In this document: positions 29,958 through 48,886 of the stretch, in pieces
Numbering within the stretch: position 1 is the stretch's first letter
Layout: every line of letters begins with the position of its first letter
Origin: a virus
Taxonomy: Duplodnaviria; Heunggongvirae; Uroviricota; Caudoviricetes
Virus record (IMG/VR): IMGVR_UViG_2529293147_000015
Direction: 5' to 3' (one strand)
DNA: 49,846 bases
Translations under genes and position numbers: made by a program
The notes under the pieces: generated by a model
The model's input: only the letters and a program-made list of their open reading frames with translations
Told to the model about the DNA's origin: nothing
The model's database searches: none

Positions 29958-30332
29958 TCAGTCCATGTCCAGCTTGATATCAAGCATCATCAACATGCCG
30001 TCAACTATCCCTTCAGCCTTTTGCAACAAACGGCCAACCCAGCAATCCGAACGACCATGCTTTCGTGCTAGCGCCATAAACGTCATGCCCGCCACGTAAT
30101 AATCTACCAGCAAATCGTGTAATTCTTTGTTGTTCTTATTCAACCGGGCCATACAGCCACAAATGATCATTGCGTCATCGTCGGAACATTGCGGACGCGA
30201 TTTAACTTTCGACGGTATTAATCCTTTAAAGCCAGCAGCAATCGATGGCCATGTGACATCCTCATGATTATTTGCCACCCACGCTCCCCAACGCTCAAGA
30301 ACCATCTGAATATCACGTGCCATCGTTACCAC
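29958..30332 (-). CDS. Q: Late-gene antiterminator Q
   Basis: 124-aa [31 protein letters not shown]... with Cys/His cluster, typical of Q-family proteins of E. coli prophages. Confidence 0.75.
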
Positions 30333-30684
30333 CTGTAATTTCGTAAATCTTCACGCCCAGCCGACCACCAGGTACAAGCTGACTGCGCACAATATTAATT
30401 TCATCAAACTGCTCGTCGTCGATAAGCAGTCCCGCATGTGTCAGTGCATCCAGTGGCGCTTTCAGGATATTGTCCAGGTCACGACGGCGCTTATCCGGTG
30501 GCTCCACAATAATCCTGATCGCCAGCCTTCCGGACAGATTTAATTTCAGTCGCTGCTGGCGAACAATGAGCGCCACATCACGGCGATAACGCTCACCGGC
30601 TTTTGATACAAAATATGTACTGCCACGACGTCGCCAGTAGGTGTTCACCGTTGGCGGGTAAGGCAAAACAAACTCTATACGCAT
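30313..30684 (-). CDS. rusA: Holliday junction resolvase RusA
   Basis: RRRDLDN catalytic motif, ~123 aa. Confidence 0.85.
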
Positions 30685-30696
30685 CAGTAACCTCTT

Positions 30697-31746
30697 TTAC
30701 CCGAGCACGCCGGTTGCAAAGGCGTGATCAAGAAAACGAAAAATTAAATCAATCTGGGAACCATGCTTTTCTTCAAATGCCAGCGGATCAGCATGAAGTT
30801 CATTGTGATGCTCCCGGCACAGCGGTAGCGTGAAAATATCGTGGGCTTTTGTCCCCATCCCTCCCTGACCGTGACCAATCAGGTGATGGGGATCGTCGGC
30901 TGGCTTACCACAACATGCACACGGCTGTGTCTTAACCCAGCGCGTGTACTTTTCGTTAACCCAGCGGCGACGTTTAGGTCGCTTCATGAAAGATTCAGGA
31001 GACTCCGGATCAACGGCAATGCTGACCACCGTCTTTTCCTGTGGTGGGTTCTGTTGCTGGTGGGCGTGAGGCGGTAGCACAATATTTTTTGTGCGCTGCT
31101 TCAGTATGCTGGTGGCTGTCTGCTCTCCCGGTATGATGTCGCTTTCACGGTACACAGAGCGGATTTTTTCCGCACGTAACCCCAGAGAACGACGTAATAC
31201 TGCCTCCGGAAGCGCGTCCGCCACCTGATTGCGGACCGCCCACCAGGATAATTCAGCCAGCGATAATTCCCGCTCCTGCGTGCCATTCACTGCATGGCGT
31301 ATGACGTCAATCATCCATGCTGACAGGTTTTGATGAGCAAGTTGCCCGAGTGATTCGGATGTCTGGTCACGCAGCTGGTTGTCGCAGTGCCAGCACAGCA
31401 CCATCGCGCCGGTACCGTAACGATGTATGACGGTTTCACTGTGATGGTAGTCACCATGAGGCCACTGGCAGGATTTAACATGACGCAGGAGCCAGTCAGA
31501 CAGTGCACCAGCGCCGCCGGCAGCACGAATCACCCGCTCATCGCTGAAAAATGGCAGCAGAGATTTGTCTTCCGCCAGCGGCTGGCGAACGGCAGGAACG
31601 ACCCCGGACGGCAGACCGCGCATGCTTTTTGGCTCCGGTTCAACCAGCACTCTGCCGTTATGGAATACCTGCATGGATTCACGACCTGGCTTAACGATAA
31701 CCACCCCAAGTTCCGGCACCAGAACAGGTCGAAGTAATACCCGCAC
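30697..31746 (-). CDS. NinG/DUF968-like phage protein with C-terminal Cys/His (HNH-like) motif
   Basis: C-terminal ...CACCGKPADDPHHLIGHGQGGMGTKAHDIFTLPLCREHHNELH; located in the nin region beside rusA. Confidence 0.55.
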   Translation of the reverse strand: MRVLLRPVLVPELGVVIVKPGRESMQVFHNGRVLVEPEPKSMRGLPSGVVPAVRQPLAEDKSLLPFFSDERVIRAAGGAGALSDWLLRHVKSCQWPHGDYHHSETVIHRYGTGAMVLCWHCDNQLRDQTSESLGQLAHQNLSAWMIDVIRHAVNGTQERELSLAELSWWAVRNQVADALPEAVLRRSLGLRAEKIRSVYRESDIIPGEQTATSILKQRTKNIVLPPHAHQQQNPPQEKTVVSIAVDPESPESFMKRPKRRRWVNEKYTRWVKTQPCACCGKPADDPHHLIGHGQGGMGTKAHDIFTLPLCREHHNELHADPLAFEEKHGSQIDLIFRFLDHAFATGVLG

Positions 31747-33062: not shown

Positions 33063-34262
33063 ATGCCATTTGTTATTTATGTGTTTACTATCAGTGCCTT
33101 TGCGCTCGGACTCGCGGAATTTGTCCCCATTGGGCTGACAGACGTTATGGCTCAGGGGTTGTGTGTGGGTGTGGAGCAGACCGGGGCAGCGGTTACAACC
33201 TATGCACTGGGGGCAACGTTCGCGGCACCCGTACTGTCTGCGCTGACAGCAAGCTGGAGCCGGAAAAATGTAATGCTTACAACTGCCGTTGTGTTTACTG
33301 CCGGTAGTCTGGCGGCCGCGTTTGCAGCCACATTACCTCAGCTCCTGTTAGCGCGGTTCATTGCTGGTCTGGGACACGGCCTGTTTCTGGCTGCGGCATC
33401 CAGTACCGCAGCTCGTCTTGCTGGACCGGGTAAAGCAGGCAGAGCGGTGGCTGTGGTATTTGGTGGCTTTACTCTGGCGATGGCAATCGGCGTACCGCTG
33501 AGTACATGGTTGGGGGGGGTGGTCTCATGGCGTCCAGTTCTCGGCGCTATTGCCGCTTTTGGCGCGTTCGGATTCCTTGGACTGTTGTTCGGTATGAAAG
33601 ATCCCGTACGCAGCGTGCCCGGTGAACATAGTGACTCAGCAATGCAGAATATCGGCATGCTGTTTAACCGTAAGTTGCTGGCCGGCGCGCTGGTTACGGT
33701 GCTGGCGTATGCAGGCTCGTTTACGGCTTACACCTTTATCGCACCTATTCTGACGCAGGTGACAGGGGTTACCGGAGCAACGGTGAGTCTGTTTATGCTG
33801 GTTTACGGTATTACAGCTGCGGTAGGTAATATTCTTGGTGGGAAACTTACCGACAGCATGGGGGTTAATCGTGCCAATATACTCATCATTAGCGGCATTG
33901 TTGTTGTCGTGCTTGGTATGTGGCTGCTGTCATCCTCACCGGTGAGCATGGGCATTCTGGTTGCGCTGCTGGGTATGGTGACATTTGCCGCAGTGCCGGC
34001 ACTGCAGGCCCGTCTGATTGGTGTCGCTGAGCAACATGCTCCTCATGCGCATGGTGTTGCTGCCGGCCTGAATATTGCGGGCTTCAACTCAGGTATAGCG
34101 CTGGGATCAGTACTGGGCAGCATTACTATAAGCCACGCCGGTATCGTGTATACCGGTATCAGCGGTGCGATTGTTTCTCTGCTCGGCCTGCTGTTGCTGC
34201 TTGCACAAATCCGTCGCAGCCACAGTCGTAAATTTCAACAGGTTAAAATCGTAGGCCAGTAA
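33063..34262 (+). CDS. MFS transporter (12-TM efflux type)
   Basis: 399-aa polytopic membrane protein with characteristic Gly-rich TM helices. Confidence 0.8.
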   Translation: MPFVIYVFTISAFALGLAEFVPIGLTDVMAQGLCVGVEQTGAAVTTYALGATFAAPVLSALTASWSRKNVMLTTAVVFTAGSLAAAFAATLPQLLLARFIAGLGHGLFLAAASSTAARLAGPGKAGRAVAVVFGGFTLAMAIGVPLSTWLGGVVSWRPVLGAIAAFGAFGFLGLLFGMKDPVRSVPGEHSDSAMQNIGMLFNRKLLAGALVTVLAYAGSFTAYTFIAPILTQVTGVTGATVSLFMLVYGITAAVGNILGGKLTDSMGVNRANILIISGIVVVVLGMWLLSSSPVSMGILVALLGMVTFAAVPALQARLIGVAEQHAPHAHGVAAGLNIAGFNSGIALGSVLGSITISHAGIVYTGISGAIVSLLGLLLLLAQIRRSHSRKFQQVKIVGQ

Positions 34263-34273
34263 AGGGAGGTTAT

Positions 34274-34966
34274 ATGCTTACCCGTGAAAATATGCTTAAT
34301 GGCACATTTGTCAGGGTGCATGAAGCGCTGCTCCCGGCGAATATGCTCTGGGACGCTGAAAAAATACGCGCATCAATGAACTCTACTCTGGAGGAGCGCC
34401 CGACGGGTGCTCCTTTCTGGATATTTGCCTACGGGTCATTGATGTGGAATCCCGTGCTGGCAATTGAAGAAATGCAACGGGCCCGTCTGAAAGGATGGCA
34501 GCGCAGTTTCTGCATTCGTTTGATATCCGGACGAGCGACTCCTGATGTCCCCGGCAGGATGTTATCGCTCGACGAAGGTGGAATTACCGAAGGGATTGCG
34601 TTCAGACTGCCGGAATCGACTCTTATTAATGAGCTGGAAATTGTCTGGACGCGCGAGATGATAACCGGTCTTTACCGTCCGGTCTGGGCAGACGTTTCGC
34701 TAGGAAACGGTGAGGAAATTCAGGCGCTGGCTTTCGTATCAGACAGACTGCATCCGCATTATGAACAGGACAATCTTACAGCGACCGTAGCATTGAGCAT
34801 CGCATCTGCCCGTGGAGACATTGGCACGAATGCAGATTATGTATGGAAACTGCAGGCCACTCTGGGTGCGTTGGGAATACGGGATGATTACGTGAGTGAA
34901 CTGGCCCTTGCTCTGCATGAGGCTCCCTGTAACGATAAACTTCATCAGCGAGGCGCTTCACTATGA
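34274..34966 (+). CDS. ChaC-like gamma-glutamylcyclotransferase family protein
   Basis: FWIFAYGSLMWNP motif and ...LWTREMITG... Confidence 0.75.
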   Translation: MLTRENMLNGTFVRVHEALLPANMLWDAEKIRASMNSTLEERPTGAPFWIFAYGSLMWNPVLAIEEMQRARLKGWQRSFCIRLISGRATPDVPGRMLSLDEGGITEGIAFRLPESTLINELEIVWTREMITGLYRPVWADVSLGNGEEIQALAFVSDRLHPHYEQDNLTATVALSIASARGDIGTNADYVWKLQATLGALGIRDDYVSELALALHEAPCNDKLHQRGASL

Positions 34967-35844
34967 GCCATCTGAGCCATCTGCGAACGTTTCTTGAGGC
35001 CTATCGCTCTGGCTCCTTTTCAAAGGCGGCAGAACTACTGGGCATCACTCAGCCCGCGGCGTCACAGCATATCCAGTCTCTTGAGACTCTGGTTGGTAAG
35101 CGTCTGTTTATCAGGCAGGCCAGAGGCGTGACGGCAACCGAAGCTGCGGATGAGCTTGCCCGCTCAGTTTCACCCTTCATTGATGGTCTGGAAGAAAAGC
35201 TGTCCTCTTTCCGGTCAGGCTCTGTACACGGGGGAACAATTAATCTGGCAGGACCGCCAGATTTTATTCATTCCCGGCTTGGGACAGTAATGGCTCCACT
35301 AATGAAGGAGGGGTATCGCTTACGCTTTCATACCGGCAATAAGCAACGTATTTATTCCCTTTTGCATGACGGGAGCGCCGATCTCGCTGTTACCGCATCT
35401 ATGCCTGATGACCGTCTGTACGGCTATGCACATCTACTGACTGAACGCATGCTCCTTGTTCATGCTCCCGCCATGTCAGAGATCATCGGATCAGAACCTG
35501 GTGCTGAAACGCTTGCCTCATTACCGCTGATTGCTTATGACGAAGAGTTGCCACTGATTAGAGCGCTCTGGGCCTCCATGTTTCAGAGAGCCCCTGAGAT
35601 GCAGGCTACATTCACCATTCCGGATTTACGTATTATCCGCGACTTGGTCTGTGACGGCCACGGGTGGACAGTGCTGCCGGATTATCACTGTGACAATGAC
35701 CTGAAAAGTGGTCGCCTGATTTCAGTGACCCCTGCAGACCTCGCTCCGACTAATCATCTTTATCTGGTCTGGAACAAAAGGACGGCTAATAACAGCCGAA
35801 CCGCCTATGTTCGGGATTACATTCTTAAAACGTTTCCGCGTTGA
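34963..35844 (+). CDS. LysR-family transcriptional regulator
   Basis: N-terminal HTH (LRTFLEAYRSGSFSKAAELLGITQPAASQHIQSLE) plus substrate-binding domain; start overlaps the ChaC-like stop. Confidence 0.85.
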   Translation: MSHLSHLRTFLEAYRSGSFSKAAELLGITQPAASQHIQSLETLVGKRLFIRQARGVTATEAADELARSVSPFIDGLEEKLSSFRSGSVHGGTINLAGPPDFIHSRLGTVMAPLMKEGYRLRFHTGNKQRIYSLLHDGSADLAVTASMPDDRLYGYAHLLTERMLLVHAPAMSEIIGSEPGAETLASLPLIAYDEELPLIRALWASMFQRAPEMQATFTIPDLRIIRDLVCDGHGWTVLPDYHCDNDLKSGRLISVTPADLAPTNHLYLVWNKRTANNSRTAYVRDYILKTFPR

Positions 35845-35888
35845 TGTTTGAAACGGATGATTGGCGATGCGTATCATAAGTTACGTAT

Positions 35889-35918
35889 GTCCGCTTCTGG
35901 CACAAAGCAGACGCCCAC
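35889..35918. repeat. Direct repeat copy 1 (GTCCGCTTCTGGCACAAAGCAGACGCCCAC)
   Basis: ~30-bp imperfect direct repeat of 39562..39591; the pair brackets the DUF2254 and BCCT genes. Confidence 0.5.
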
Positions 35919-35974
35919 TCTCACGCGAATGCTTTGCCCTTGACTTGCCAACAACCGTATCGCTTGCTCCGCAA

Positions 35975-37267
35975 CTATGGTTTTTTATTAGAACCTTCGC
36001 CACTAAATAAATTATAATAAATTGATTTTATTAGATATCTGTCAGAATCTATATGGTCAGCACGAGTAGCATGCTCTAATGTTTCAAATGCTAGGGTTTG
36101 TGCGGCTTCAGCAAAAATTCCAGGCCAACCCTTACTCAGCATCGACAGTCCTTTAAGTACCCTTATCTGAATTTCCCTCATACTGGCACCATCGCGCGCA
36201 ACAGGTGAGAAAAAGTCTTCAAGTAGATCGTTATTCTGAAGTGGTGCAACATGTACAGAAGGATATTTCACTTCTATTTCATCAGATTTATTCTGCGCGT
36301 AAGCGGAAAGTATACGTACACCTCTGCCAATGACATCAATGGCGGTTCCAGGATCGTTCACTGCGGGGGAAAGGGCTCGGCAGGCTATTTCGGCCATGAC
36401 GCTAAGACAAAATCGGGGGTCCTGAGCAAATGAACGTACATCCGAGACAATAATCGTCTCAAGTAAATCGGTGCTGATTGATGACTCCTGGCCCTGACTC
36501 AGGTACAAAACTGGCGTGGACGGATGTATGAAACTGCCCGGCTGCGCCACGAGGTATACATGACGGGGATCATTGGTCAGCAGCTTGCTGAGTTTCACCA
36601 TATCAACATATTCAACATAGCCAATCTTTTTCGGATAAACTGCAACCGTTCCTTTCGGCTGTTCATTGTTCTCAAGCCAAGGATATCCGCCGAGACAGGG
36701 ATTTCTTGCTCTCGCAATAAATGTTTCGATGGCCGCCTGTTCTACTTTTGCCGTTGTCTCACCAACCCTCCCCAGAGAGGTCAAATGCTGTATCCAGCGA
36801 AGCAATGTGATGAGGATTAAGGCAATGACAACCAGTGTTACAATGAATAAAATGACTCTCCCCCTTTCTCCATAAGCTCCCATATTGAGGGCAATAATCC
36901 CTACCAGACTGAAGAGAAAAGAACCGATGAAGGTGGCCAGTACATTTTGTGTGGTGACGTCTTCAACAACTAAACGAGTAGCTCTGGGAGTCACATTAGT
37001 AGTGGCTGAACCGTAGGCTGTGACCATGATGCTCAGCGAAAATGTGGTCACTGCCAGCATACTCGATGCCAGTATGTTCAGAATGTTATCGACTGCTTCC
37101 GCACCAACCTTCACGGAAACCGACTCAGGTATCATTGATTTAAAAAGAATTGATAAAAGGGCCGTTATTATTGCGACAATTGCGAATAACGTTGCCCTGA
37201 ACCATAGTTTTTTAAATGTCTGCTTCAGCATCCATTTCCAGCGTGAAATCATTCTGCATTCCCTCAT
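35975..37267 (-). CDS. DUF2254-type integral membrane protein
   Basis: 430-aa ORF with N-terminal TM bundle and soluble C-terminal domain. Confidence 0.6.
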   Translation of the reverse strand: MRECRMISRWKWMLKQTFKKLWFRATLFAIVAIITALLSILFKSMIPESVSVKVGAEAVDNILNILASSMLAVTTFSLSIMVTAYGSATTNVTPRATRLVVEDVTTQNVLATFIGSFLFSLVGIIALNMGAYGERGRVILFIVTLVVIALILITLLRWIQHLTSLGRVGETTAKVEQAAIETFIARARNPCLGGYPWLENNEQPKGTVAVYPKKIGYVEYVDMVKLSKLLTNDPRHVYLVAQPGSFIHPSTPVLYLSQGQESSISTDLLETIIVSDVRSFAQDPRFCLSVMAEIACRALSPAVNDPGTAIDVIGRGVRILSAYAQNKSDEIEVKYPSVHVAPLQNNDLLEDFFSPVARDGASMREIQIRVLKGLSMLSKGWPGIFAEAAQTLAFETLEHATRADHIDSDRYLIKSIYYNLFSGEGSNKKP

Positions 37268-37315
37268 ATTGCAGCCGGGATAAATAAATGCCGCCTCTGT
37301 GGCGGCATGTTGCTG

Positions 37316-39319
37316 TTAACGAACCAGATGCAGGAAGTGCAGGTGTTTTTCGTACTGGTCCAGTATGTCATTAATCAGCTGTTCCTGATTCCAGCCCATT
37401 ACATCATAATTTTGGCCGCCCTCTTTGAGATAGACTTCAGCGCGATAATATCGATGTTGTTCACTCTGCTGCTCATCATTATCCAGCGCAGCGAGCGCGA
37501 AGGTCGGTGAGTTATACCCGCGAAGCCTCACTTCATATATATAATTCAGCTCGTTGCCCAAATCGACTTCAAGGCGAATACGATCCTCGGCGGCGTCACT
37601 GATGTGGCTTATCGTTCCCTGCTTGTTAAGTTCCTCCTGAACCAGCGTCATGGCGGGTTGGATAATGTCGTCCATAAAACGTTTCACAAGAGAGCGCTTC
37701 GGCAAATACGCGATATTGCGTAACCTTCTCTGCCAGGGAATTGGGTTACGTGCAGCCGTAGGAGCAATAGTCGCCATGCTAAGGCTTTCACGCTTGGTCA
37801 AATCCCGACGCAGGGCTTTTAACAGTCCGTATATGGATATTAATAAGATAACTGAGAAGGGCAATGCACTCGCTATCGTTACGGTTTGCAACGCACTCAG
37901 CCCCCCTGCGATCAGCAGGGCAATAGCAACAACGCCCATGAGCGATGCCCAGAAAATTCGCTGCCAGACGGGCGTGTTTGCCACCCCACCTGATGCCAGA
38001 GTATCCACAACCATTGCCCCCGAATCAGCAGACGTTACAAAGAAGACGATGACCATCGCCATTGCAATGAATGACAGCACGGAAGAGAACGGGAAATGCT
38101 CCAGGAAATTAAACAGGGCAAGCGCAACATCCTGCTGAACGGTATTGGCGAGGTCAGTGGCGCCCTGGTTCATGATGAGATAGATGGCGCTGTTTCCAAA
38201 CACCGTCATCCACATGAGCGTAAAGCCGGCGGGAACAAACAACACGCCAGTCACGAACTCACGAATTGTCCTGCCGCGGGAAACGCGTGCAATGAACATA
38301 CCTACAAACGGCGACCATGAAAGCCACCATCCCCAGTATAATAATGTCCAGCCCCCCAGCCAGTTGCTCGACTTGGGTTCATACGCGTAAAGGTTGAACG
38401 TTTTACTCACCAGTTCCGACAGATAACCACCCGTATTTTCCACAAATGACTTCAGCAGAAGCACAGTGGGACCCAGGCACAAGACCAGCGCCAGGAGCAA
38501 CACCGCCAGGCCCAGATTAAGCTCAGACAGGATGCGTATTCCCTTGTCCAGGCCGGACACCACCGAAATCGTCGCTAACCCCGTGATGACCACGATCAAA
38601 ATGACCTGTACCGTTTCATTGATGGGCACGCCGAAAAGATGGTTCAAACCGGCATTCACCTGCAATACACCGTAACCCAGTGATGTTGCAACGCCAAAGA
38701 CAGTGCCTATCACGGCGAAGATATCAACCGCGTGGCCTATAGGCCCGTAAATGCGATCGCCGATAATGGGATAGAGCGCAGAACGCAGCGTTAAAGGCAG
38801 ACCGTGACGGTAACTGAAAAAGGCCAGAATCAGCGCCACGATGGCATAAATTGCCCATGCGTGCAGACCCCAGTGGAAGAACGTCAGGCGCATGGCTTCC
38901 TTCGCTGCCGCAACGGTCTCTGGAGTGCCGACAGGTGGCGAAAGATAATGCATCACAGGTTCGGCAACGCCAAAGAACATCAGGCCGATCCCCATCCCTG
39001 CCGAAAAAAGCATCGCGAACCAGGAGTGGTAGCTGAAATCAGGCTGCGCATGGTCTGGGCCCAGCTTTATATCACCGTAACGTGAGAGTCCAAGGAACGT
39101 GACGCTCAGTAAAATCAGGGCCACAGCAAGTATGTAGAACCAGCTGGCATTCGTGAAGATTTGTTGCTGAAGTAGTTTAAAATTTTTGTCGGCGACATCC
39201 GGGAATACGGCGGCAAAGGCGACAAGAAGGAAAATTAGCAAAGCAGATGTAAAGAATACCGCTTTGTTAATCTGGCTTGTAGACTTCTTTGGGGTTGTAT
39301 CATTTTCACTCATAATCAT
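37316..39319 (-). CDS. BCCT-family (betaine/carnitine/choline) transporter
   Basis: 667 aa; BCCT signature around WTLLYWGWWLSWSPFVGMFIARVSRGRTIREF. Confidence 0.85.
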   Translation of the reverse strand: MIMSENDTTPKKSTSQINKAVFFTSALLIFLLVAFAAVFPDVADKNFKLLQQQIFTNASWFYILAVALILLSVTFLGLSRYGDIKLGPDHAQPDFSYHSWFAMLFSAGMGIGLMFFGVAEPVMHYLSPPVGTPETVAAAKEAMRLTFFHWGLHAWAIYAIVALILAFFSYRHGLPLTLRSALYPIIGDRIYGPIGHAVDIFAVIGTVFGVATSLGYGVLQVNAGLNHLFGVPINETVQVILIVVITGLATISVVSGLDKGIRILSELNLGLAVLLLALVLCLGPTVLLLKSFVENTGGYLSELVSKTFNLYAYEPKSSNWLGGWTLLYWGWWLSWSPFVGMFIARVSRGRTIREFVTGVLFVPAGFTLMWMTVFGNSAIYLIMNQGATDLANTVQQDVALALFNFLEHFPFSSVLSFIAMAMVIVFFVTSADSGAMVVDTLASGGVANTPVWQRIFWASLMGVVAIALLIAGGLSALQTVTIASALPFSVILLISIYGLLKALRRDLTKRESLSMATIAPTAARNPIPWQRRLRNIAYLPKRSLVKRFMDDIIQPAMTLVQEELNKQGTISHISDAAEDRIRLEVDLGNELNYIYEVRLRGYNSPTFALAALDNDEQQSEQHRYYRAEVYLKEGGQNYDVMGWNQEQLINDILDQYEKHLHFLHLVR

Positions 39320-41684: not shown

Positions 41685-41983
41685 GAATCAACTCCATCAG
41701 ATAAGCATGCACTACAATCACCTTCAGCATGAACTACATGTGTTTGCCCCAAACGAATGCCGCTCGCATACTCAGGCCAAATAAGCTCCCAATCATGGGG
41801 TCGTAGCTCCGCCCTACTTACTTGGCCTTCCGTCGCAGATTCGATCATAAGGGCGCGTGTTGGAGATATAGCTGCTCGTCCAGACGCCATTTGCGATAAG
41901 TAAGATGGCGATACACCAAGTCTGGCTGCGAATTTCTTAGCATCACCAACCCTCAATGATTTAATAAACTCTTTTAATGTCAT
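41681..41983 (-). CDS. Cro-like HTH regulator (YdaS-like)
   Basis: HTH segment AKKFAARLGVSPSYLSQMASGR; divergent from the repressor gene. Confidence 0.6.
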   Translation of the reverse strand: MTLKEFIKSLRVGDAKKFAARLGVSPSYLSQMASGRAAISPTRALMIESATEGQVSRAELRPHDWELIWPEYASGIRLGQTHVVHAEGDCSACLSDGVDS

Positions 41984-41991
41984 ACCTTCCT

Positions 41992-42070
41992 CGGTTTAGT
42001 GTTTTTTTTGAGAGTTTAGTGTTTAATAAACCATTAAGTCAAGTATTTGCTTGTTTAGTGATTACTAAAG
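41992..42070. promoter_or_regulatory. OR-like operator and divergent promoter region
   Basis: Three GTTTAGTG copies (41994, 42015, 42053) and palindrome GTTTAATAAAC between the divergent Cro-like and repressor genes. Confidence 0.5.
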
Positions 42071-42081
42071 ATAATTACCAC

Positions 42082-42453
42082 ATGCAAAAAAAAGAAATTC
42101 GCCGTTTACGTCTCAAGGAGTGGTTTAAAGATAAAACTCTGCCACCCAAAGAGAAGAGCTACCTATCTCAACTAATGAGTGGGAGAGCCTCGTTTGGAGA
42201 AAAGGCTGCCAGAAGAATAGAGCAAACATACGGGATGCCGGAAGGGTATCTGGATGCGGAATACGCAGAACAACCGGAGGTTTCTCCACCACATGCAGGG
42301 TTAACGTCTAATCAACTGGAATTATTGCAGATTTTTTCAGCCTTCCCTGAGGATGAGCAACGCCAGATAATCAGCGAGTTAAAGCAGAAAAAAGAATCAA
42401 TGGAAGATCTCATAGCGAGATGGATTGCGGCGCAAAAATGCCGCCGCGCCTGA
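42082..42453 (+). CDS. Prophage repressor / regulator (RacR- or PaaR-like)
   Basis: ORF from MQKKEIRRLRLKEW...; divergent to the Cro-like gene and upstream of the TA pair. Confidence 0.55.
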   Translation: MQKKEIRRLRLKEWFKDKTLPPKEKSYLSQLMSGRASFGEKAARRIEQTYGMPEGYLDAEYAEQPEVSPPHAGLTSNQLELLQIFSAFPEDEQRQIISELKQKKESMEDLIARWIAAQKCRRA

Positions 42454-42473
42454 GTTATAAAACCGGAGGAAAC

Positions 42474-42665
42474 ATGAATAGAGCCCTTTCACCAATGGTT
42501 TCTGAATTTGAAACCATTGAACAAGAAAACAGTTACAACGAATGGCTGCGTGCAAAAGTAGCAACGAGCCTTGCAGATCCACGCCCAGCAATTCCCCATG
42601 ACGAAGTTGAGCGCAGAATGGCAGAACGCTTTGCTAAAATGCGCAAGGAACGGAGCAAGCAGTAA
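42474..42665 (+). CDS. Type II antitoxin (small, PaaA/ParD-like)
   Basis: 63-aa ORF MNRALSPMVSEFETIEQENSYNEWLRAK..., RBS GGAGGA, stop 1 nt before the toxin start. Confidence 0.6.
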   Translation: MNRALSPMVSEFETIEQENSYNEWLRAKVATSLADPRPAIPHDEVERRMAERFAKMRKERSKQ

Positions 42666-42666
42666 A

Positions 42667-42945
42667 ATGTTACCCGTGTTATGGCTTGAAAGCGCAGATA
42701 CCGACCTAGATGATATAACTAGTTATATTGCTCGTTTCGACATAGATGCGGCTGAACGCTTATGGCAGCGATTAAGGGGTTGTGTGCTGCCGTTATCCGA
42801 ACATCCGTATTTATACCCACCAAGCGACAGAGTACCTGGCTTGCGTGAGATTGTAGCCCACCCTAACTATATAATTCTATACCGCGTAACAACATCAAGC
42901 GTTGAAGTAGTAAACGTGATCCACGCAAGACGCCAGTTTCCCTAA
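42667..42945 (+). CDS. ParE/RelE-family toxin
   Basis: 92-aa ORF MLPVLWLESADTDLDDITSYIA... ending ...ILYRVTTSSVEVVNVIHARRQFP. Confidence 0.7.
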   Translation: MLPVLWLESADTDLDDITSYIARFDIDAAERLWQRLRGCVLPLSEHPYLYPPSDRVPGLREIVAHPNYIILYRVTTSSVEVVNVIHARRQFP

Positions 42946-43829: not shown

Positions 43830-44306
43830 TGACAGTTTACTGAAAGGATATTTCCCTGAAAAGTCAGACCATAACGCGAAAGCGCACGGCGAGGTAGCTG
43901 GTTCATAGATAGCCTGTCGTTAAATTTTCGTCGACCGTGCGCTTCCGGTTGTGGCAATCCGCGAAATGGCGCGGCGGTAAGTATGGCGGGGTTATTCCTT
44001 CCCCCGTTGAGGACACCGGGTTGTCAGGTTGACCATACGCTTAAGTGACAACCCCGCTGCAACGCCCTCTGTTATCAATTTTCTGGTGACGTTTGGCGGT
44101 ATCAGTTTTACTCCGTGACTGCTCTGCCGCCCTTTTTAAAGTGAATTTTGTGATGTGGTGAATGCGGCTGAGCGCACGCGGAACAGTTAAAACCAAAAAC
44201 AGTGTTATGGGTGGATTCTCTGTATCCGGCGTTAATTGTTAACTGGTTAACGTCACCTGGAGGCACCAGGCACCGCATCACAAAATTCATTGTTGAGGAC
44301 GCGATA

Positions 44307-44495
44307 ATGAAAACGTTATTACCAAACGTTAATACGTCTGAAGGTTGTTTTGAAATTGGTGTCACTATCAGTAACCCAGTATTTACTGAAGATGCCATTA
44401 ACAAGAGAAAACAAGAAGGGGAGCTATTAAATAAAATATGCATTGTTTCAATGCTGGCTCGTTTACGTCTGATGCCAAAAGGATGTGCACAATGA
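44307..44495 (+). CDS. Small hypothetical protein
   Basis: 62-aa ORF from MKTLLPNVNTSEG..., RBS GAGGA. Confidence 0.35.
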   Translation: MKTLLPNVNTSEGCFEIGVTISNPVFTEDAINKRKQEGELLNKICIVSMLARLRLMPKGCAQ

Positions 44496-44683
44496 ATTCA
44501 GCATTTGCGCTTGTTCTGACAGTTTATCTTGTTTCCGGAGAGCCAGTTGATATTGCAGTCAGTGTTCACAGGACAATGCAGGAGTGTATGACTGCAGCAA
44601 CCGAACAGAAAATTCCCGGTAACTGTTACCCGGTCGATAAAGTTATTCACCAGGATAATAACGAAATCCCGGCAGGTCTTTAA
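44492..44683 (+). CDS. Small secreted or membrane protein
   Basis: 63-aa ORF MNSAFALVLTVYLVSG... with signal-peptide-like N-terminus; ATGA overlap with the upstream gene. Confidence 0.4.
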   Translation: MNSAFALVLTVYLVSGEPVDIAVSVHRTMQECMTAATEQKIPGNCYPVDKVIHQDNNEIPAGL

Positions 44684-44775: not shown

Positions 44776-47247
44776 ATGAGTAAAGTCTTTATTTGCGCCG
44801 CCATTCCGGACGAACAGGCAATAAAGGAAGAAGGTGCAGTCGCTGTAGCCACAGCCATTGAAGCTGGCGACGAACGCCGTGCTCGAGCAAAATTTCACTG
44901 GCAATTCCTGGAGCATTATCCGGCTGCTCAGGACTGCGCTTATAAATTTCTTGTTTGCGAGGATAAACCCGGTATACCCCGCCCTGCCCTCGATTCCTGG
45001 GATGCTGAATATATGCAGGAAAACCGCTGGGATGAGGAGTCTGCTTCCTTTGTCCCGGTTGAGACTGAATCAGATCCGATGAACGTCACTTTTGACAAGC
45101 TGGCCCCTGAAGTACAGAACGCTGTCATGGTTAAGTTCGACACATGTGAAAACATCACCGTTGATATGATTATTAGCGCGCAGGAATTGTTGCAGGAAGA
45201 CATGGCAACATTCGACGGACATATCGTTGAAGCGTTGATGAAAATGCCAGAAGTTAACGCCATGTATCCGGAGCTTAAGTTGCACGCCATTGGGTGGGTT
45301 AAGCATAAATGTATTCCTAGTGCTAAATGGCCCGAAATTCAGGCAGAGATGCGCATCTGGAAAAAACGTCGCGAAGGTGAACGCAAGGAAACCGGAAAAT
45401 ACACGTCTGTTGTTGATCTCGCCCGCGCCAGAACCAATCAACAGTACACTGAAAATTCAACAGGAAAAATCTGCCCGGTCATTGCTGCCATTCATCGCGA
45501 ATACAAGCAGACATGGAAAACACTGGATGACGAACTGGCCTACGCTCTCTGGCCTGGTGATGTGGGTGCCGGAAACATTGACGGCAGCATCCATCGCTGG
45601 GCAAAAAAAGAAGTTATCGACAACGACCGCGAAGACTGGAAGCGTATCTCGGCATCAATGCGCAAACAGCCTGATGCCCTTCGCTACGACCGCCAAACTA
45701 TTTTTGGCCTTGTCCGTGAGCGTCCGATCGACATTCACAAAGATCCCGTAGCACTGAACAAATATATCTGCGAATACCTGACGACAAAGGGCGCGTTTGA
45801 GAATGAAGAAACAGACCTGGGCACTGTTGATGTTCTCCAGTCATCAGAAACACAAACTGATGCAGTGGAAACTGAGGTATCTGATATCCCAAAAAATGAA
45901 ACCGCGCCGGAAGCTGAACCATCTGTAGAGCGTGAGGGGCCGTTCTATTTCCTCTTCGCAGATAAGGACGGAGAAAAATACGGTCGCGCAAACAAACTTT
46001 CTGGTCTGGATAAGGCACTGGCTGCTGGCGCCACTGAAATCACAAAAGAAGAATATTTTGCCCGAAAAAATGGCACATACACGGGCTTACCGCAAAATGT
46101 AGATACCGCTGAAGATTCAGAACAACCAGAGCCGATAAAAGTTACCGCTGACGAAGTAAACAAAATTATGCAGGCAGCCAATATCAGCCAGCCTGACGCC
46201 GATAAGTTGCTTGCTGCATCACGTGGTGAATTTGTTGAAGGGATTAGTGACCCGAATGATCCGAAATGGGTTAAGGGGATCCAGACCCGCGATTCTGTGA
46301 ACCAGAACCAGCATGAATCGGAACGGAACTACCAAAAAGCGGAACAAAACAGTCCAAATGCGTTACAAAACGAGCCAGAAACGAAACAGCCTGAACCAGT
46401 GGCGCAACAGGAAGTGGAAAAAGCCTGCACCGCTTGCGGTCAGACCGGCGGCGGCAACTGCCCTGATTGTGGCGCGGTGATGGGCGACGCAACATACCAA
46501 GAAACATTCGATGAAGAGTATCAGGTTGAAGTTCAGGAAGATGATCCGGAGGAAATGGAAGGCGCTGAACATCCACACAAGGAGAACACTGGCGGCAATC
46601 AGCATCACAATAGCGATAATGAAACTGGCGAGACGGCAGATCACCCAATTAAGGTGAACGGTCATCACGAAATCACATCCACCAGCAGGACGTGTGACCA
46701 TCTAATGATCGACCTTGAAACCATGGGAAAAAATCCTGATGCCCCGATCATCTCAATAGGTGCAATATTTTTCGATCCGCAAACCGGAGATATGGGACCG
46801 GAATTTAGTAAGACTATCGATCTGGAAACTGCTGGCGGAGTCATTGATCGGGACACCATTAAATGGTGGCTTAAGCAATCACGCGAAGCGCAATCTGCCA
46901 TTATGACCGATGAAATCCCGTTAGATGATGCACTGTTACAATTGCGGGAATTTATCGACGAAAACTCCGGTGAATTTTTTGTTCATGTCTGGGGAAATGG
47001 AGCCAACTTCGACAACACGATTTTGCGCCGTTCATACGAACGGCAGGGGATCCCCTGCCCGTGGCGTTACTACAACGATCGCGATGTACGCACAATCGTT
47101 GAGCTGGGGAAAGCCATAGACTTCGATGCCAGAACGGCTATTCCATTCGAAGGTGAGCGCCATAATGCACTTGATGACGCCCGTTACCAGGCAAAATACG
47201 TTTCAGTTATCTGGCAAAAACTGATCCCGAGTCAGGCTGATTCTTAA
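44776..47247 (+). CDS. Prophage exonuclease with C-terminal DnaQ-like (DEDD) 3'-5' exonuclease domain
   Basis: 823 aa; C-terminal motifs DLETMG, HVWGNGANFDNTIL, HNALDDARYQA; sits in the exo/recE position upstream of xis-int. Confidence 0.7.
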   Translation: MSKVFICAAIPDEQAIKEEGAVAVATAIEAGDERRARAKFHWQFLEHYPAAQDCAYKFLVCEDKPGIPRPALDSWDAEYMQENRWDEESASFVPVETESDPMNVTFDKLAPEVQNAVMVKFDTCENITVDMIISAQELLQEDMATFDGHIVEALMKMPEVNAMYPELKLHAIGWVKHKCIPSAKWPEIQAEMRIWKKRREGERKETGKYTSVVDLARARTNQQYTENSTGKICPVIAAIHREYKQTWKTLDDELAYALWPGDVGAGNIDGSIHRWAKKEVIDNDREDWKRISASMRKQPDALRYDRQTIFGLVRERPIDIHKDPVALNKYICEYLTTKGAFENEETDLGTVDVLQSSETQTDAVETEVSDIPKNETAPEAEPSVEREGPFYFLFADKDGEKYGRANKLSGLDKALAAGATEITKEEYFARKNGTYTGLPQNVDTAEDSEQPEPIKVTADEVNKIMQAANISQPDADKLLAASRGEFVEGISDPNDPKWVKGIQTRDSVNQNQHESERNYQKAEQNSPNALQNEPETKQPEPVAQQEVEKACTACGQTGGGNCPDCGAVMGDATYQETFDEEYQVEVQEDDPEEMEGAEHPHKENTGGNQHHNSDNETGETADHPIKVNGHHEITSTSRTCDHLMIDLETMGKNPDAPIISIGAIFFDPQTGDMGPEFSKTIDLETAGGVIDRDTIKWWLKQSREAQSAIMTDEIPLDDALLQLREFIDENSGEFFVHVWGNGANFDNTILRRSYERQGIPCPWRYYNDRDVRTIVELGKAIDFDARTAIPFEGERHNALDDARYQAKYVSVIWQKLIPSQADS

Positions 47248-47319: not shown

Positions 47320-47571
47320 ATGAGCGAAGTAATCATGATTGTCTCTCCCGGCAAATGGGTATCCGAAGAGCAGTTAATTGCGCTGAAAGGAATAAAAAAA
47401 GGTACGTTAAAAAAGGCCCGGGAAAAATCGTTTATGGAAGGAAGGGAATATAAGCATGTCGCTCATGACGGTATGCCATGGGATAACAGCCCATGCTTTT
47501 ACAACCTGGAAGAAATTGATCGCTGGATTGAGCGCCAGGCATCAGCAAGACCAAGACGTCATCTTACTTGA
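47320..47571 (+). CDS. xis: Excisionase (Xis)
   Basis: Small basic ORF immediately upstream of int. Confidence 0.65.
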   Translation: MSEVIMIVSPGKWVSEEQLIALKGIKKGTLKKAREKSFMEGREYKHVAHDGMPWDNSPCFYNLEEIDRWIERQASARPRRHLT

Positions 47572-47590: not shown

Positions 47591-48886
47591 ATGAGAGAAG
47601 TTGAAATGAAATATCCGACAGGCGTGGAAAACCATGGAGGGAAATTACGTATCTGGTTTGTTTATAAAGGCGTAAGAGTCAGGGAAAACCTGGGGGTTCC
47701 TGACACAGCAAAAAACAGGCGCGTTGCAGGCGAGCTACGCGCCTCTGTTTGTTACGCAATAAAAACTGGTGTTTTCGACTATGCAAAACAGTTTCCCTCC
47801 TCACGCAATCTGGAAAAATTTGGTGAGACCCGACAAGATTTAACCATAAAAGAACTGGCTGAAAAATTTCTGGCACTGAAAGAAACTGAAGTCGCAAAAA
47901 CATCACTCAACACATACCGTGCCGTCATCAAAAATATCCTGAGCATAATCGGTGAAAAAAATCTTGCCTCATCGATTAATAAAGAAAAATTACTGGAGGT
48001 TCGTAAAGAGCTACTGACTGGATACCAGATCCCCAAAAGTAACTATATTGTTACACAACCAGGAAGATCGGCTGTAACTGTAAATAATTACATGACAAAT
48101 CTTAACGCCGTGTTCCAGTTTGGTGTTGATAACGGTTACCTGGCAGATAACCCGTTTAAGGGGATCTCGCCATTAAAGGAATCAAGAACCATTCCGGATC
48201 CTCTTTCGCGGGAGGAATTCATCCGTCTTATCGATGCGTGCAGAAATCAGCAAGCCAAAAATTTATGGTGTGTTTCTGTTTATACTGGCGTTCGCCCTGG
48301 TGAGCTGTGTGCACTTGGATGGGAGGACATAGATCTGAAAAATGGAACAATGATGATCAGGAGAAATTTAGCAAAAGACCGTTTCACGGTACCAAAAACA
48401 CAGGCGGGAACCAATCGGGTCATTCATCTTATTAAGCCAGCAATCGACGCTCTCCGGAGTCAGATGACATTAACGAGACTGAGCAAAGAGCATATCATTG
48501 ATGTTCACCTCAGAGAGTATGGCAGAACAGAAAAACATAAATGCACCTTTGTTTTTCAACCTGAAGTGTCAGCGAGAGTAAAAAATTATGGTGACCATTT
48601 TACCGTTGACTCAATAAGGCAGATGTGGGACGCAGCGATAAAACGTGCCGGACTCCGCCATCGAAAATCATATCAGTCGAGACATACTTATGCCTGCTGG
48701 TCGCTGACAGCTGGTGCTAACCCGGCATTTATAGCAAACCAGATGGGCCATGCAGATGCGCAAATGGTATTTCAGGTATACGGAAAATGGATGTCTGAAA
48801 ACAATAATGCACAGGTAGCTTTGTTAAATACACAGTTAAGCGAGTTTGCCCCAACCATGCCCCATAACGAAGCAATGAAAAATTAA
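47591..48886 (+). CDS. int: Tyrosine integrase (alternative start at 47606, MKYPTG)
   Basis: N-terminal arm-binding-like region GGKLRIWFVYKG; C-terminal catalytic region with HTYACW...GHADAQMVFQVYGKWM. Confidence 0.9.
   Translation: MREVEMKYPTGVENHGGKLRIWFVYKGVRVRENLGVPDTAKNRRVAGELRASVCYAIKTGVFDYAKQFPSSRNLEKFGETRQDLTIKELAEKFLALKETEVAKTSLNTYRAVIKNILSIIGEKNLASSINKEKLLEVRKELLTGYQIPKSNYIVTQPGRSAVTVNNYMTNLNAVFQFGVDNGYLADNPFKGISPLKESRTIPDPLSREEFIRLIDACRNQQAKNLWCVSVYTGVRPGELCALGWEDIDLKNGTMMIRRNLAKDRFTVPKTQAGTNRVIHLIKPAIDALRSQMTLTRLSKEHIIDVHLREYGRTEKHKCTFVFQPEVSARVKNYGDHFTVDSIRQMWDAAIKRAGLRHRKSYQSRHTYACWSLTAGANPAFIANQMGHADAQMVFQVYGKWMSENNNAQVALLNTQLSEFAPTMPHNEAMKN

Follow-up and report, generated by a model that had tools for sequence, protein, structure and literature searches.

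The viral DNA examined here (IMG/VR record IMGVR_UViG_2529293147_000015, Caudoviricetes; called the window below, meaning the whole stretch of 49,846 nucleotides) carries a complete gene for an 823-amino-acid (aa) protein, at positions 44776 to 47247, that lies where lambdoid prophages keep their recombination exonuclease. Our main finding is that this protein joins the N-terminal region of RecE, the exonuclease VIII of the Rac prophage, to a different catalytic head that is predicted to degrade DNA from the opposite end, and that the annealing protein expected beside it is absent. The gene starts with ATG, preceded by a GAGG ribosome-binding site about 10 nucleotides upstream, and its relatives are annotated with the same boundaries in RefSeq and GenBank. 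It is the third from last in an early-left operon that runs from a cI-like repressor through PaaA2/ParE, DUF1391, the small RNA DicF, dicB and ydfD to the gene itself, and ends with the excisionase gene xis and the integrase gene int (Table 1). The presence of DicF upstream of dicB confirms that this is an early-left operon of the Qin/DicB type. An earlier note, made from the sequence alone, had placed an 823-aa protein in the RecE/exo slot; the open reading frame (ORF) is exactly as described there, and the order dicB - ydfD - gene - xis - int agrees with that placement. A promoter and terminator scan around the gene gave no excess over the shuffled expectation.

The same note had left the N-terminal ~600 aa unassigned, a statement that has to be revised. 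The NCBIfam equivalog model for RecE, PRK09709, matches aa 246-623 at model positions 271-600, with a score (278, for a cut-off of 1269) that is far too low because the nuclease part is missing. BLASTP aligns aa 278-627 with residues 293-592 of K-12 RecE, and identity reaches ~85% from aa 470 on (aa 470-627 against RecE ~440-592). This alignment includes the peptide GEFV[ED]GISDPNDPKW, common to the two proteins, and the Cys cluster that had been noticed in the N-terminal region (CTACGQTGGGNCPDCG at aa 551-566), whose counterpart in K-12 RecE is CNACGQTGGDNCPDCG. BLAST yields no alignment of aa 1-205 with K-12 RecE; hhalign matches this segment to the RecE domain Exonuc_VIII (PF06630) over nearly its full length (probability 94.7%, E 5.6e-8, 188 columns), and by this profile comparison it is a remote homologue of that N-domain. 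Proteins 87-96% identical to the 823-aa protein are assigned to PF27430 (YdfE_N) and PF27432 (YdfE_C), these calls being precomputed in the records of relatives retrieved by a search of 5.8 billion proteins. Judged by homology, the first ~625 residues correspond to the whole of the RecE N-terminal region, which is non-catalytic. The region thus matches known domains. A 2023 review describes the RecE N-terminal domain as being of unknown function, says that the nuclease domain can by itself stand in genetically, and relays from Fu 2012 that full-length RecE, scaffold included, enhances linear-linear recombination (PMC11611040). The region is also acidic, as had been remarked: the first 640 aa have an isoelectric point of 4.69 and a net charge of -51.

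The C-terminal part is of another kind. The last ~180 aa had been read as DnaQ-like, and they match the Pfam family PF16473 (Rv2179c-like) over model positions 2-177 of 177 (E 6.9e-67; 225 bits for a cut-off of 27), RNase_T being a second, weak match. The DEDDh motifs are intact: DLET (D646, E648), NGANFD (D746) and HNALDD (H796, D801), all invariant in the family representatives. In sequence and in fold, the nearest solved relative is the DexA protein of phage T4 (E 6e-6 and 9e-5; PDB 8KEL), a 3'-5' DNA exonuclease (PMC12153337) whose catalytic pentad D7, E9, D119, H186 and D191 is identical and aligns with the five residues above. T4 DexA nevertheless differs from the 823-aa protein in being a stand-alone protein of 227 aa with extra loops and no N-terminal scaffold, and the two share only ~20% identity. 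Foldseek also matches the head to Orn, to RNases of the ERI family and to RNase AS. Rv2179c/RNase AS of Mycobacterium tuberculosis, the founder of PF16473, shares the Pfam family and the DEDDh fold with the head, but it is a stand-alone bacterial RNase and its structural match (E 0.04-0.07) is much weaker than that of DexA. A literature search on Rv2179c together with phage returned nothing relevant.

The closest characterised relative comes from E. coli. EcD, the E. coli homologue of DexA, spares unmodified double-stranded DNA at 25 °C and digests the T4 genome, which contains 5-hydroxymethylcytosine (5hmC); expressed from a plasmid it protects cells from T4, an activity called 'HREX' (PMC12153337). 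We recovered its sequence from a primer published in that paper, as a 189-aa protein encoded on viral contigs, and we take this protein to be EcD because its A78 aligns with DexA D90, as published. EcD, a member of PF16473 (E 1.6e-48), and the head share 38% identity over the whole domain (E 9e-38), with all catalytic residues aligned. The two differ at the equivalents of DexA W152 and D169, which are proposed to recognise 5hmC, and of the tetramerisation residue D90 (PMC12153337): the proposed recognition pair is W132/E145 in EcD and Y766/K779 in the 823-aa protein, and the tetramerisation residue, replaced by A78 in EcD, is retained as D718. Because the W152/D169 equivalents are not conserved, the head does not qualify as a 5hmC-specific enzyme of the EcD type. 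Taken together with the intact motifs, these relationships suggest that it is most probably a 3'-5' DNA exonuclease. The possibility that the head is EcD itself was rejected: the window does not contain the EcD primer sequence, and EcD has a gene of its own.

EcD, like the 823-aa protein, is prophage-borne, and unlike it stands alone. Its locus (L113:6401-6970, - strand; also L092, L097, L107 and L110) is a P2-like early region with the gene order int, C-like repressor, cox, EcD, Dam-class methyltransferase and DUF4406. EcD thus seems to belong to P2-like prophages; its original description treats it as a defence gene of bacteria and nowhere uses the word 'prophage' (PMC12153337).

The domain architecture was drawn from an AlphaFold2 (AF2) model built on an alignment of 64-69 sequences, and from the ratio of nonsynonymous to synonymous substitution rates (dN/dS; Nei-Gojobori, window gene against the copies of phages mEp460 and Evi). 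The structure prediction suggested in the earlier note gives three confident folded domains in the N-terminal region, D1, D2 and D3, followed by a long acidic linker and the DEDDh head; their coordinates, confidence values (predicted local distance difference test, pLDDT) and dN/dS are collected in Table 1. D2, the module most widely shared in the family, is present in K-12 RecE according to phmmer mapping and BLASTP. No close solved or viral structural relative was found for D1, and Foldseek with the full-length model returned matches to the DEDD domain only. The short linker between D2 and D3 (aa 341-384) has a dN/dS of 0.69. Low values in D1, D2, D3 and the DEDD domain, compared with the linkers, mirror the AF2 map: purifying selection acts on all four folded domains, which indicates that each of them is kept.

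Table 1. Features of the early-left operon and of the 823-aa gene in the window
Feature	Position	Strand	Evidence or remark
cI-like repressor	41977-42453		upstream end of the early-left gene series
PaaA2-type antitoxin (PF21217) and ParE toxin (PF05016)	42420-42945	+	directly 3' of the cI-like repressor
DicF antisense small RNA	44081-44132	+	Rfam RF00039, 76.7 bits, E 5e-16; upstream of dicB
dicB, 62 aa	44307..44495	+	Pfam PF05358; synteny with locus L002
ydfD (DUF1482)	44492..44683	+	Pfam PF07358; synteny; directly upstream of the 823-aa gene
Complete 823-aa gene	44776..47247	+	RecE-type N-terminal scaffold and DEDDh 3'-5' exonuclease head (predicted activity)
D1, aa 1-205, alpha/beta fold, YdfE_N type	44776..45390	+	pLDDT 93-98; dN/dS 0.07-0.17
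D2, aa 245-340, helical	45508..45795	+	pLDDT 92-98; dN/dS 0.11-0.14
D3, aa 385-435, small beta-beta-alpha-beta-alpha module	45928..46080	+	pLDDT 86-96; dN/dS 0.03-0.05
Acidic, mostly disordered linker, aa 436-640	46081..46695	+	pLDDT < 50; dN/dS 0.39-0.46; charge profile
Conserved peptide GEFVEGISDPNDPKW, aa 484-498, within the disordered linker	46225..46269	+	
CxxC-x7-CxxC cluster, aa 551-566, putative zinc ribbon common to K-12 RecE	46426..46473	+	AF2 confidence low
Mosaic junction, codon ~623	46642..46644	+	end of DNA identity to loci L004 and L005
DEDDh exonuclease domain, aa 642-813, Rv2179c-like/DexA-like	46699..47214	+	dN/dS 0.14-0.16
Excisionase xis (DUF1233)	47320..47571	+	directly downstream; recT position in RecE-type siblings
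Tyrosine integrase int	47591..48886	+	

How a RecE N-terminal region came to carry such a head is visible in the DNA of its nearest siblings. The top matches to the N-terminal 640 aa are proteins of 900 aa, 96% identical over ~98% of the query, that end in PF12684 (DUF3799, the RecE-type PD-(D/E)XK nuclease) and not in PF16473. Two such sibling loci, L004 and L005, read dicB - DUF1482 - [YdfE_N/YdfE_C/DUF3799, 900 aa] - RecT - (Lar) - DUF1187 - xis - int, and sit at the Rac attachment side (ttcA). By blastn, the window is 93-97% identical to them from upstream of dicB to position 46642, in codon 623; 3' of this point identity is gone until a weak match in int. The junction falls within the disordered interdomain linker, a few residues before the similarity to K-12 RecE ends (aa 627 of our protein, RecE 592). 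One mosaic exchange therefore accounts for both the changed nuclease head and the absent recT. The PaaA2/ParE pair of the window is also found in L004.

The comparison with RecE can be summarised on both sides of this junction. The 823-aa protein resembles RecE in its operon position, in D1 (remotely) and D2, in the acidic linker, in the GISDPNDPKW peptide and in the CxxC..CxxC cluster. RecE, however, has a C-terminal PD-(D/E)XK nuclease (564/606-866; DUF3799) that works 5'-3' and is partnered by recT, whereas the 823-aa protein has no Pfam match to that nuclease, a predicted 3'-5' polarity and no recT.

The absence of an annealase, which the earlier note had already remarked for the adjacent genes, extends to the whole window. 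The gene is directly followed by xis and then int, and no single-strand annealing protein (SSAP) gene was found across the 49.8 kb. Upstream, the + strand ORFs between the repressor and the gene are at most 124 aa long; they are PaaA2/ParE, DUF1391, DicB and DUF1482. A recT-like gene might have been overlooked, and was looked for by tblastn over the whole window: K-12 RecT, lambda Bet/Exo/Gam, P22 Erf/Abc2, a Rad52-like SSAP and Gp157 were all unmatched (best E 0.26), as was the C-terminal domain of RecE (E > 1). Ten other mid-size ORFs of the window, scanned against PHROG, included no annealase; they gave RusA, Q, an HNH/DUF968 protein, a methyltransferase, a replication initiator and a Ren-like protein. 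Phage Tritos, whose copy of the gene is 98.3% identical, likewise has no annotated annealase in its complete genome. The RusA-like Holliday-junction resolvase (30313-30684, - strand) and the HNH/DUF968 (YdfU-like) protein (30697-31746, - strand) are encoded beside Q, and RusA is, besides the integrase, the sole recombination function recognised in the incompletely annotated window.

To place the protein in its family, we searched 1.84 billion representatives exhaustively by HMMER with the N-terminal region. Only 253 clusters match, so the family is narrow. Its 48 representatives of at least 450 aa nonetheless bear different heads: DEDD in 7, RecE-type in 11, and in 14 a third C-terminal domain of ~300 aa with the signature KKSLTDAxKKALSxLGFSADVWLGLYD. 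Of 47 long family representatives, 18, drawn from all head classes, have the GISDPNDPKW peptide, which K-12 RecE has too, and 6 have the Cys cluster. The D1 module exists in two versions, of YdfE_N and of Exonuc_VIII type, which recombine independently of the head.

The third class probably consists of annealase fusions, as several sequence relationships suggest. Eight of its 14 members have a sub-threshold match to Pfam Rad52_Rad22 (PF04098) in the motif region (best E 0.003), and stand-alone phage homologues of the domain are annotated as 'RAD52-like annealing protein' (38.5% identity, E 7e-43) or 'single strand-annealing protein'. Moreover, the prophage loci place the fused gene between a Gam homologue on its 5' side and, on its 3' side, an overlapping Sipho_Gp157 gene with xis-int beyond it. 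A profile of the domain searched against the sequences of the PDB found no Rad52, only spurious matches at E ~0.3. These fusions, carried by lambdoid and ZF40-like prophages, share with the 823-aa protein D1, D2, D3, sometimes the GISDPNDPKW peptide, and the slot before xis-int; they differ from it in the Rad52-type-like C-terminal ~300 aa and in the Gam and Sipho_Gp157 flanks. The proteins are 680-814 aa long and are labelled 'exonuclease' (phrog_2489/7838; for instance P0129, P0134 and P0137, and loci L007 (3579-5927), L015 and L046). More than 572 viral contigs encode a third-class protein, and widespread mis-annotation is probable. Further variants exist: in P0200 (703 aa) the RecE N-region is fused in frame to RecT, apparently via a deletion of the nuclease domain, and P0126 and P0133 end in a small conserved module, LTxxQxLTIAAxxGLCANPA (phrog_26058), that may be a fourth head.

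In itself the 823-aa gene is ordinary, and already catalogued under PHROG 2082, YdfE_N, YdfE_C and Rv2179c-like; existing annotations call it 'exonuclease' or '3'-5' exoribonuclease domain-containing protein'. Whole or in part, it matches 4800 of 5426 complete E. coli genomes (~88%), and 3537 of the 5426 match it over at least 80% of its length; a genome has a median of 2 matching places, and up to 10. Intact copies are found in the functional phages HannyBb, Tritos, mEp460 and Evi. The K-12 gene ydfE, in the Qin prophage, is a pseudogene of the 823-aa gene truncated by the insertion sequence (IS) IS2, in the same dicB-ydfD-ydfE-int setting, and the gene of the window is the intact orthologue of this pseudogene. 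A literature search on YdfE found no functional study. Besides the IS2 truncation of ydfE, inactivated copies include a frameshift in PPompW phages (L087:3001-5468, PPompW_EH1846) and an IS3 insertion in strain 20AR1039 (H26, NZ_CM132269.1), so the gene is dispensable in at least some lysogens.

Elsewhere in the window, an apparently non-phage gene block at 33063-39319 (both strands) separates the Q/RusA region from the replication genes. It comprises + strand ORFs of 399, 230 and 293 aa, then - strand ORFs of 430 and 667 aa. The E. coli records nearest to 27422-49846 name an MFS transporter, a DUF2254 protein and a BCCT transporter, names that are not tied to single ORFs. It may represent prophage cargo; alternatively, two elements may lie side by side in the window.

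We consider that the gene encodes a RecE scaffold with a swapped head related to T4 DexA and EcD, likely a scaffold-tethered 3'-5' DNA exonuclease that is not half of an exonuclease/annealase pair, and we put the probability of this reading at about 0.6. Lambdoid prophages would have recombined inside the interdomain linker, and the exchange would have swapped the RecE PD-(D/E)XK domain and recT-lar-ydaC for a DexA/EcD-like DEDDh domain followed by xis-int. The product, made from the early-left operon, would use its head to digest DNA from 3' ends in the 3'-5' direction with Mg2+ as cofactor; the N-terminal scaffold would bring the head to whichever target it recognises in RecE. We infer this delivery from the three enzymes to which the same scaffold is joined, all of which work on DNA ends or on single-stranded DNA. 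A candidate biological role is the processing of phage or foreign DNA ends.

Four points weigh against this proposal. The biochemical activity of the 823-aa protein is a prediction. An RNA substrate has to be reckoned with, since one member of PF16473, Rv2179c/RNase AS, is a genuine RNase. A 3'-5' exonuclease removes the 3' tails used by annealases and RecA, and since digestion in this direction destroys those tails, a role in favour of recombination is not obvious. Finally, AF2 confidence in the DEDD domain is moderate (pLDDT 55-86), which we attribute to the few DEDD-bearing sequences in the alignment.

A wider interpretation, which we offer tentatively, is that the RecE N-terminal region is an autonomous, exchangeable targeting platform to which lambdoid phages would join a 5'-3' PD-(D/E)XK exonuclease, a 3'-5' DEDDh exonuclease or a Rad52-like annealase as DNA-end effector, the DEDD version being a scaffold-targeted nuclease with a role other than recombination. 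It would trim or destroy the 3' ends of foreign or own linear DNA, possibly in defence or in protection from RecBCD. Candidate targets of the scaffold, as a matter of speculation, are host SSB, the replisome and DNA ends.

Among the alternatives, the best placed, though unlikely, is a superinfection-exclusion nuclease of the HREX type, whose head would digest incoming phage DNA with modified bases, be it the 5hmC of T-even phages or another modification, and spare host DNA, the scaffold being a mere carrier. The precedent is EcD, likewise a prophage gene of the same Pfam family, 38% identical to the head, which degrades T4 DNA but not unmodified double-stranded DNA and protects from T4 when plasmid-borne (PMC12153337); the operon is also rich in host-directed accessory genes (dicB, DicF, ydfD, ParE). 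Against it, the proposed 5hmC-recognition residues are not conserved (Y766, K779), and the tetramerisation residue is kept (D718) where EcD has A78. PADLOC, moreover, assigns the 823-aa protein to no defence-system model beyond a generic Cas-associated DEDDh match, the scaffold bears recombination heads elsewhere, and the 823-aa gene sits in the recombination slot. RecE itself degrades the multicopy single-stranded DNA (msDNA) of retrons and so triggers retron toxin-antitoxin systems (bioRxiv 10.1101/2020.06.22.160242); nucleases of the RecE slot therefore interact with host defence, an observation with no direct bearing on the DEDD version.

The slot and the scaffold, the same as in RecE and in the Rad52-like fusions, invite the idea that the protein serves recombination after all, as an end-processing nuclease whose annealase is supplied in trans (for example by a co-resident Rac-type RecT), or with RecA/RecFOR, through contacts made by the RecE scaffold. 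Several lambdoid prophages per E. coli genome are typical, as the number of matching places illustrates, the window encodes RusA, and the boost given by full-length RecE to linear-linear recombination, as relayed in the review from Fu 2012 (PMC11611040), also speaks for it. Nevertheless, the predicted polarity is opposite to that of every characterised phage recombination exonuclease and would remove the 3' tails, and complete phages with the gene have no annealase of their own, as far as annotation goes (Tritos). We therefore hold this explanation to be somewhat less likely still than defence against modified phage DNA.

That the head is an exoribonuclease, similar to RNase AS/Rv2179c or to a nanoRNase and acting on the 3' ends of host or phage RNA or on short oligonucleotides, is improbable. 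The RNase Rv2179c gave its name to the best Pfam model, RefSeq calls relatives '3'-5' exoribonuclease', and the Foldseek matches include Orn, ERI-family RNases and RNase AS; but the nearest solved relative, DexA, is a DNA exonuclease that matches far better than Rv2179c/RNase AS (E values above), EcD acts on DNA, and the scaffold is otherwise joined to DNA enzymes. Lastly, the idea that illegitimate recombination in a defective prophage left behind a chimera that has no function and is decaying, as the IS2-truncated ydfE of K-12 and the frameshifted or IS-interrupted records might suggest, is very hard to credit: this pseudogene reading was rejected on dN/dS, given the strong purifying selection on four folded domains, and thousands of genomes, as well as viable phages, carry the gene intact; its catalytic residues are in place and its junction falls neatly in a linker.

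The labels 'exodeoxyribonuclease VIII' and 'ds DNA exonuclease' found on the 823-aa gene are wrong on the catalytic domain and, by prediction, on polarity, and the 'exonucleases' of phrog_2489/7838 probably end in a Rad52-like annealase. The 38%-identical relative active against T4 raises the possibility of an EcD-like defence role for what is a near-universal prophage gene. More generally, a scaffold that nature has paired with three DNA-end effectors offers a way into what the RecE N-terminal region does, a question that bears on recombineering, since full-length RecE reportedly improves linear-linear cloning. Should the platform interpretation prove true, comparison of the three natural chimeras would make the target of the scaffold directly testable.

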